Of a stretch of 64,000 nucleotides of DNA, positions 10,095-10,361 are shown in pieces. Within the stretch, counting starts at the first letter, position 1. Every line of letters begins with the position of its first letter. Where the stretch lies: NCBI RefSeq assembly GCF_003334815.1, contig NZ_QOWO01000024.1. One strand, 5' to 3'. The notes under the pieces are model-generated. The model did no database searches, was not told where the DNA came from, and saw nothing but the letters and a program-made list of their open reading frames with translations. The DNA is from Escherichia coli. Lineage in GTDB: Bacteria; Pseudomonadota; Gammaproteobacteria; Enterobacterales; Enterobacteriaceae. A program made the translations under genes and the position numbers.

Positions 10095-10361
10095 ATGGAA
10101 TGGCTGGTCAAAAAATCGTGCTGCAATAAACAAGATAACAGACATGTACTTATGCTCTGCGATGCTGGCGGCGCGATAAAAATGATCGCCGAAGTGAAGA
10201 GTGACTTCGCCGTGAAAGTGGGGGATTTACTCTCGCCTTTGCAGAATGCGCTTTATTGTATTAATCGTGAAAAGCTGCATACGGTGAAAGTCCTCTCGGC
10301 AAGCAGTTATAGCCCCGATGAGTGGGAACGGCAGTGTAAAGTGGCAGGGAAAACTCAGTAA
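10095..10361 (+). CDS. pmrD: PmrD, connector protein linking PhoPQ to PmrAB
   Basis: ORF-track frame trimmed to [15 protein letters not shown] (88 aa), recognised as PmrD; 3' end overlaps arnF 3' end. Confidence 0.85.

Follow-up and report, generated by a model that had tools for sequence, protein, structure and literature searches.

The convergent pmrD–arnF junction of Escherichia coli: a compact tail-to-tail overlap of two coding sequences

Genes and shared bases at the junction

The window, a 64,000-nt stretch of Escherichia coli DNA, contains a chromosomal segment in which menFDHBCE and pmrD are followed by the opposite-strand operon arnBCADTEF and then by ais (Table 1). Translation of pmrD starts at the ATG at 10095 and its last codons are ACT CAG TAA, with the TAA stop at 10359–10361. 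That of arnF starts on the minus strand at the ATG at 10741 and its last codons are CGT TAC TGA, with the TGA stop at 10357..10355. The two coding sequences have 7 nt in common, TCAGTAA, arranged tail-to-tail; the window reads aaaactcagtaacgttgttt from 10350 to 10369, and in the shared bases the third codon positions of the two frames oppose each other. Every arn reading frame translates with a single terminal stop, and arnF is the last gene of the operon, whose coordinates were obtained by adding 899 to the locus coordinates of the annotation. The PmrA box listed upstream of arnB is taken here to be the box of the arnB promoter, on the basis of established knowledge of the PmrA regulon.

Both partners are genuine protein genes. 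PmrD matches the PmrD equivalog model NCBIfam NF011994 with 175 bits (cut-off 96), the profile spanning residues 1–85 of 88, and ArnF matches the ArnF equivalog model NCBIfam NF002816 with 140 bits (cut-off 99), the profile spanning residues 4–122 of 128. The same 7-nt overlap is present in the RefSeq/PGAP annotation of three unrelated E. coli strains (98195, WL297 and DFK.1). The pair is a convergent coding overlap in the full sense, with two protein genes lying on opposite strands and holding 3′ nucleotides in common. The coordinates, the 7-bp overlap and the place of arnF as the last arn gene, as given in a preliminary description of this DNA, are all borne out by the sequence, the translations and the RefSeq annotation.

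The two genes belong to one regulatory circuit. PhoP activates pmrD, PmrD protects phospho-PmrA, and PmrA activates arn (PMC2565834; PMC3140997). The premise that PmrD feeds into the PmrA pathway, which also activates arn, is therefore established in the literature, and the PmrA box at 17804–17820 agrees with it. PmrD thereby couples PhoP/PhoQ to PmrA/PmrB, and the aminoarabinose modification of lipid A by the arn products is a main route to polymyxin and colistin resistance. At the locus, PhoP-activated pmrD sits between menE and the end of PmrA-activated arnBCADTEF, with zero intergenic DNA on the arnF side.

Table 1. Positions of genes and sequence features around the pmrD–arnF junction (window coordinates)
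Feature	Position	Strand	Remarks
menE, co-directional neighbour upstream of pmrD	8630..9985	+	NCBIfam NF006539, 757 bits; annotation
Long hairpin closed by a 13-nt repeat	10014..10104	+	3′ arm over the pmrD ATG
pmrD coding sequence	10095..10361	+	88 aa; NF011994 and PGAP annotation
Terminator-like element, arn-sense, within pmrD	10178..10212	-	About 175 nt past the arnF stop
7-nt overlap TCAGTAA	10355..10361	both	xxT CAG TAR kept in Escherichia
arnF coding sequence	10355..10741	-	128 aa, last arn gene; NF002816 and PGAP annotation
11-bp hairpin (CTGAGCAAGGC-ATAG-GCTTTGCTTAG) within the arnF coding sequence	10500..10525	+	139–164 nt 3′ of the pmrD stop; no U-tract
arnE, arnT, arnD, arnA, arnC, arnB (rest of the arn operon)	10741..17705	-	Annotation; transcribed toward pmrD
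PmrA (BasR) box CTTAAGGTTAAGTTAAT	17804..17820	-	99–115 nt upstream of the arnB start; 1 mismatch to YTTAAK-N5-YTTAAK

Conservation of the junction

The junction is nearly universal in the species: a 1001-nt query around it has a match in 5420 of 5426 complete E. coli genomes, and a 61-nt query confined to the junction has one in 5237 of them. Stop-to-stop distances were compared at 18 loci obtained through PmrD alignment, with one genome per species, and at one additional Salmonella enterica locus. E. coli and E. albertii both show -7 nt; the value for S. enterica, S. diarizonae and S. arizonae is -6 nt. The shared bases in Salmonella form the palindrome TCATGA, which reads Ser-stop on either strand. 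In 11 Citrobacter loci the two stops are separated by a gap of 0 to +9 nt. Close spacing of pmrD and arnF is common to these relatives and is not a product of strain-specific stop-codon loss, while the length of the overlap and its reading phase vary. Escherichia and Salmonella overlap by different lengths and in different codon phases, so their overlaps are not base-by-base homologues. What is conserved is the abutment of the two genes alone, not the overlap itself, and the conservation of this tight junction is the non-random feature here.

In Escherichia, the last pmrD codons have the form xxT CAG TAR, as dual coding with the arnF end ...TAC TGA demands. The overlapping codons fall past the residues covered by the PmrD and ArnF family profiles, and the C-terminus is the most variable region of the PmrD alignment. 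Distant PmrD homologues, collected by profile search and placed in their genomic contexts, occur in unrelated settings and not beside arn genes, indicating that the junction is specific to the Escherichia/Salmonella/Citrobacter group; being away from arn genes, these homologues are uninformative on how the junction evolved. The pmrD gene itself has been described by the Groisman laboratory as 'invented or horizontally acquired' in this lineage (PMC2565834).

Overlaps of this type are frequent. A survey of prokaryotic gene overlaps put the number of convergent coding overlaps in E. coli at 58, and a rho-independent terminator was predicted for only 23 of the 116 genes involved (20%) (PMC2174442). 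With 58 such cases known in the species, asking how probable a single overlap is by chance is not useful, and the pmrD–arnF overlap is an ordinary member of a common, well-described class.

Transcript ends around the junction

Both stop codons fall within the 7 nt held in common, so each complete mRNA carries the last codons of the other gene in antisense. Transcripts ending before the overlap are not functional mRNAs, since they are devoid of stop codons. Thus, mutual antisense transcription of arn and pmrD, which the preliminary description had deduced from the gene arrangement, is obligatory for complete mRNAs, and overlap of the transcripts is found in published RNA-seq data (PMC12288877). 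A terminating ribosome would need about 12–15 nt past the stop codon, so that the mRNAs presumably extend further than the shared bases.

The overlap of the pmrD and arnF transcripts is already catalogued. In the ExcludonFinder study (NAR 2025; PMC12288877), which covered 58 MG1655 transcriptomes, arnF–pmrD is one of the 165 convergent excludons recurring in 50% or more of them and is named as an example of partners acting in the same pathway. The idea of an antisense link between the two genes is in print at the level of this catalogue. A coverage-based excludon call is nearly automatic when the coding sequences already overlap and adds little independent evidence. The literature searched on pmrD in combination with antisense, Rho, bicyclomycin, Term-seq or RNase III contained nothing specific beyond ExcludonFinder.

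Several searches were directed at terminators. A scan of 9000–12000 with a consensus terminator pattern returned 7 sites, where 4.1 were expected, and none of these is downstream of either stop in the right orientation. Folds of the 140–150 nt past each stop are no better than those of shuffled sequences (z of about +0.1 to +0.4), and an Rfam scan of 9000–12000 with E-values up to 1 gave no match. Pattern scanning and folding near the junction revealed no bidirectional intrinsic terminator, that is, a G+C-rich hairpin with an A-tract and a U-tract between the stops, and the genes leave no intergenic space. The only textbook-like site, at 10462..10447, in arnF sense inside arnF and 90 nt before its stop, was rejected as an operon terminator, as its z was -0.2 against shuffles. 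The assertion that there is no room for a terminator is thus right in that intergenic space is absent and no canonical intrinsic terminator is seen between the stops or just past them, but it goes too far in that 3′-end determinants can sit inside the opposite gene, where candidates are present at 10500–10525 and 10212–10178.

Base composition gives a further hint. Antisense pmrD, for most of its length, and the first ~100 nt of antisense arnF have C/G ratios of 1.4–1.8 (window medians, 0.92 and 1.09), although similar thresholds are passed by 6–17% of all windows in this region. The excess of C over G in both extensions is weakly suggestive of Rho-dependent termination, as it resembles the composition of Rho loading sites. 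One published table of 3′ ends (PMC10687069 Supplementary Data 3) lists no arn or pmrD 3′ terminus, the cultures probably being not arn-inducing. The supplements of the Adams et al. preprint do not mention pmrD and arnF, and neither do those of a p19 dsRNA capture study, which are uninformative if arn was not induced.

The hairpin at 10500–10525 has a predicted stability of -15.9 kcal/mol on the plus strand versus -8.9 kcal/mol on the minus, arnF-sense strand, where it is weaker because two G-U pairs turn into C-A mismatches. It is retained in Escherichia and in the C. freundii group, at -16 to -22 kcal/mol, and is stabler there than 98.5–99.9% of synonymous recodings (p = 0.001–0.015). In Salmonella, where the comparison with the synonymous-codon null is not significant, and in some C. 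amalonaticus loci, the hairpin is weak. The null for these values consists of synonymous codons, since the ArnF protein search yielded only Escherichia, Citrobacter and Salmonella and hence no species without a convergent pmrD as a control. A covariation analysis is no more than suggestive: 90% of cells are paired, with 26 of 500 shuffles reaching the observed score, and one third-position pair occurs as GC, GU, CG and AU. As a U-tract is absent, this hairpin is not a canonical terminator; it is possibly a protective stem for the 3′ end of pmrD mRNA. Its stability hints that at least one 3′-end element is under selection, and that the junction may not be wholly passive.

The element at 10212–10178 comprises an interrupted stem of 8 pairs with an 8-nt loop (10212..10187), followed by AUCAUUUUUAUC, in which a U5 run occupies 10182..10178 and begins 4 nt past the stem. 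Its folding energy is -10.4 kcal/mol (p = 0.014 against the synonymous-codon null). The element is seen in E. coli only, not being conserved in other genera, and is a weak terminator candidate. No mapped 3′ end falls at either this element or the hairpin at 10500–10525 in PMC10687069 Supplementary Data 3, which derives from cultures that were probably not arn-inducing.

The 5′ end of pmrD also bears a structure. A perfect 13-nt inverted repeat, GCCATTCCATTGC at 10014–10026 and GCAATGGAATGGC at 10092–10104, brackets the whole pmrD promoter region, and RNA from 9986 to 10110 folds into one long hairpin (-31.8 kcal/mol, z = -3.1). E. albertii, Salmonella and the C. freundii group have kept the repeat some 80 nt ahead of the pmrD ATG, and the Salmonella form combines a G-to-A change in the upstream copy with a compensatory C-to-T change in pmrD codon 4. 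A pmrD-sense 3′ end is mapped at MG1655 position 2373524, equivalent to window position 10110, which is 6 nt past the stem (PMC10687069 Supplementary Data 3). The men-operon transcript is suspected to have its structured 3′ end here. In that case the hairpin would also mask the start codon of pmrD in RNA that reads through, and neighbouring transcripts would overlap pmrD at both of its ends.

Interpretation and comparison with known systems

The reading that best accounts for these observations, with a probability of roughly three in four, is that the junction is a compact tail-to-tail arrangement rather than a dedicated device, which arose by stop-codon drift, constitutes a convergent excludon and has a regulatory role that is secondary at most. 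pmrD would have been placed directly against arnF, with no spacer, at the time of its origin or arrival, and the overlap would then have resulted from drift of the stop codons in weakly constrained C-terminal tails. Complete arn mRNAs would reach antisense into pmrD and complete pmrD mRNAs antisense into arnF. Each mRNA would have to continue past its stop by at least the footprint of a ribosome, so that the two could pair over some 30 nt or more. Both extensions are untranslated and richer in C than in G. Rho acting within the opposite gene is the most likely cause of their termination, after which the 3′ ends would be trimmed back to hairpins. As pmrD is only 267 nt long, arn read-through probably spans much or all of the gene and may reach its promoter. 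If the junction has any regulatory effect, strong arn induction would most likely damp pmrD modestly. Transcriptional interference or antisense control coupling pmrD and arn, as raised in the preliminary description, is something that we only infer from this layout.

A more ambitious explanation gives the junction a regulatory function of its own. PmrA-driven arn polymerases proceeding past arnF would cross pmrD and its promoter, colliding with or occluding polymerases there, and the antisense RNA would lead to cleavage by RNase III; PmrD would fall, and a negative loop would be completed that stands in for Salmonella-type promoter repression in the main E. coli allele. This explanation is tenable but doubtful. 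It draws support from the lack of a terminator between the genes, the shortness of pmrD, the shared pathway of two partners flagged as an excludon, and the preservation of a close junction in three genera. The convergent E. coli pair mscL–arfA provides a worked precedent with RNase III (PMC10070815).

The distribution of PmrA boxes bears on this explanation most directly. The Salmonella pmrD promoter is a target of PmrA repression (Kato et al., 2003, as cited in PMC2565834 and PMC3140997). A direct repeat resembling the PmrA box, with 0–2 mismatches and at a fixed 102–114 nt upstream of the pmrD ATG, is present in Salmonella, in all Citrobacter loci, in E. albertii and in a minority E. coli allele. 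The allele of the window is degenerate in this respect: the best match to YTTAAK-N5-YTTAAK within 150 nt upstream of pmrD has 3 mismatches, which is the level expected by chance. Among the menE–pmrD intergenic alleles of 5426 complete E. coli genomes, the window allele accounts for 4306 (~79%) and the boxed allele for 1095 (~20%). Since most E. coli have a degenerate box, those strains would need another route for any damping of pmrD by PmrA, and arn read-through across the 267-nt pmrD is the obvious physical candidate for it. Feedback from arn onto pmrD is therefore plausible. The fuller proposal, that in the ~79% of E. coli genomes in which the box has been lost arn read-through over the whole of pmrD and its promoter replaces that box as the negative PmrA feedback, the ~20% with a box having both routes, is quite unlikely to hold.

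Several points count against a feedback function. Inverse expression, RNase III dependence or a cis test for arnF–pmrD was not found in the literature searched, and no accessible dataset or experiment displays inverse expression or cis-dependence. According to the Groisman laboratory, E. coli does not have the PmrA-to-pmrD feedback loop (PMC3140997). Control of the arfA kind requires comparable levels of both RNAs, and there is no indication of sufficient arn transcript beyond arnF; the p19 dsRNA dataset mentions neither gene. Salmonella and Citrobacter possess both a promoter PmrA box and the same junction, so feedback in those genera does not require the junction. Conservation of the spacing may merely reflect the lack of any pressure to insert DNA.

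An unlikely explanation in the opposite direction is that termination is efficient but cryptic: transcripts would end just past one or both stops, inside the neighbouring gene, leaving a short, harmless antisense RNA and an overlap without consequence. The two candidate elements, each stabler than its synonymous-codon null, are in line with such ends, and in the published survey an intrinsic terminator within the partner gene was assigned to 20% of the E. coli genes that overlap convergently (PMC2174442). However, the candidates lie 139–180 nt into the partner, so that antisense overlap would still cover two thirds of pmrD. Moreover, the plus-strand hairpin is devoid of a U-tract, the minus-strand element is specific to E. 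coli, with its interrupted stem, 8-nt loop and a U-run standing 4 nt off the stem, and a mapped 3′ end coincides with neither candidate in the one table searched.

An annotation artefact, in which one frame was mis-called and the overlap is unreal, can be set aside, as nothing specific favours it beyond the general experience that ends of short ORFs are sometimes misannotated, whereas the stop codons are set by the sequence itself, both proteins fit curated equivalog models across nearly their full length, both have been studied experimentally and their frames and lengths are constant across Escherichia (PmrD, 88 aa; ArnF, 128 aa), so that sequence, translations, equivalog matches and annotation together effectively refute it.

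As it stands, the finding correctly describes an ordinary convergent overlap, one annotated and listed as an excludon before, and is not a discovery. If arn transcription did damp pmrD in cis, it would add an extra feedback arm to a well-studied circuit and might partly account for the ways in which E. coli differs from Salmonella and E. coli lineages differ from one another. Such damping would also be relevant to the design of constructs, as tags at the pmrD 3′ end, arn insertions and arn amplifications would alter the traffic across the junction.

Bidirectional terminators and head-on collisions of polymerases at convergent genes were reportedly described by Ju et al. in 2019. In such systems the 3′ ends of convergent units overlap, as they do at pmrD–arnF, and colliding polymerases aid termination (bioRxiv 10.1101/2022.10.23.513370). 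The sites concerned have a shared intergenic hairpin with A and U tracts, whereas pmrD–arnF has none. Among tail-to-tail overlaps of prokaryotes (Lillo and Krakauer, 2007; PMC2174442), the pair is typical in that the overlap is short and the stops can coexist with sense codons of the other strand. The commonest convergent overlap in that survey is 4 nt long (CTAA, TTAA, CTAG or TTAG), whereas this junction has 7 nt of overlap in Escherichia and, in Salmonella, the 6 nt TCATGA.

Feedback through read-through, if it operates, would share its logical arrow with PmrA repression of the Salmonella pmrD promoter: PmrA activity lowers pmrD, closing a negative loop. The mechanism in Salmonella, as far as it is reported in the citing papers, is PmrA binding at the pmrD promoter, and the matching box is degenerate in the E. 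coli allele of the window. An antisense route for a PmrA effect on pmrD was not described in the literature searched.

Like the other convergent excludons of E. coli (PMC12288877; reviewed in PMC7154746), pmrD and arnF are opposite-strand neighbours with overlapping transcripts. Most listed excludons overlap in untranslated regions, the mean intergenic distance being 95 nt, whereas arnF and pmrD overlap in coding sequence, and transcript overlap is therefore obligatory. The mscL–arfA pair likewise consists of convergent E. coli neighbours with overlapping 3′ ends; one of its transcripts acts as an antisense RNA on the other, RNase III is involved, and two stress responses are thereby linked (PMC10070815). 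That system has been shown experimentally, whereas pmrD–arnF is known here from sequence. It also differs in its proportions: pmrD–arnF pairs a 7.3-kb operon with a 267-nt gene that could be wholly covered by antisense transcription.

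The hairpin over the pmrD start and the menE-pmrD intergenic region

The pmrD ATG lies inside the 3' arm (10092-10104) of a 13-nt inverted repeat (see table), and the RNA 9986-10110 is predicted to fold at -31.8 kcal/mol (z = -3.1). Conservation of the repeat extends to E. albertii, Salmonella and the C. freundii group, with a compensatory change in the Salmonella copy. A pmrD-sense 3' end has been mapped at MG1655 position 2373524 (PMC10687069), which corresponds to window position 10110 and is located 6 nt past the stem of this repeat. The hairpin spanning 10014-10104 may form the structured 3' terminus of men-operon transcripts; it may also hide the pmrD start codon within read-through RNA.

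The menE-pmrD intergenic region of E. coli exists in two allelic forms (compared over window 9972-10031 and 95-154 of the pmrD locus L028). The window-type allele, found in 4306 of 5426 complete E. coli genomes, contains no recognisable PmrA box. The second allele (1095 of the 5426) carries a PmrA-box-like repeat, ATTAAGAAATCATTAGT, that E. albertii also has; a PmrA box with 0-2 mismatches occupies the corresponding position in Salmonella and at every Citrobacter locus.

Inverted-repeat and hairpin features around pmrD and arnF
Feature	Window position	Strand	Remark
Perfect 13-nt inverted repeat	10014-10026 and 10092-10104		Flanks the pmrD promoter on both sides
Perfect palindrome, CTTCCCGGCTGGGAAG then GGACTTTTTC	10447-10462	minus	Terminator-like, arnF-sense
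Hairpin in arnF coding sequence	10500-10525	stronger on pmrD-sense strand	From folding

Structures inside arnF

The terminator-like palindrome is located 90 nt ahead of the arnF stop. Its fold does not exceed that of shuffled sequences on the minus strand (z = -0.2); on the plus strand, z = -2.1. For the second structure in arnF, the predicted free energy is -15.9 kcal/mol in the pmrD-sense direction versus -8.9 kcal/mol on the opposite strand, a marked difference, and both Escherichia and the C. freundii group show a stability of this hairpin greater than expected from synonymous recoding. This hairpin has no U-tract.

Variation of pmrD, the arn operon and their junction

Three E. coli PmrD variants of 103 aa (P0016, P0017 and P0030 of the protein comparison set) are frameshifted near residues 65-77, and their reading frames continue into antisense arnF. 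Shortened PmrD forms of 55-69 aa occur in further protein clusters. Judging from the frameshifted and shortened sequences together, pmrD seems to be decaying in some E. coli lineages. In E. coli O80:H26 EC-107 (NZ_CP043217.1, match H1), the 1001-nt junction query is split into two pieces and an IS1A-family transposase annotation lies beneath the match, which indicates an IS1 insertion in the menE-pmrD-arnF-arnE stretch.

Retention of pmrD with a deleted or degraded arn operon is observed in three loci (L003, 3384-3700; L004, 3251-3500; L017, 3258-4114). In Escherichia sp. MOD1-EC7003, arnF is truncated, contains an internal stop and is joined to arnT remnants. In E. coli SCPM-O-B-8794, all of arnF but its last ~22 codons is gone; what remains adjoins the arnB promoter region, and pmrD there has lost its stop and is extended by 6 codons. 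No arn genes occur in Intestinirhabdus alba, where pmrD is accompanied by menE and an ais-like gene.

In Salmonella, the stops of pmrD and arnF (pmrM) share the 6-nt palindrome TCATGA (Salmonella enterica locus L020, 3253-3258; also L019 and L015), which reads Ser-stop in both directions. The codon phase of this overlap differs from that of the E. coli overlap.
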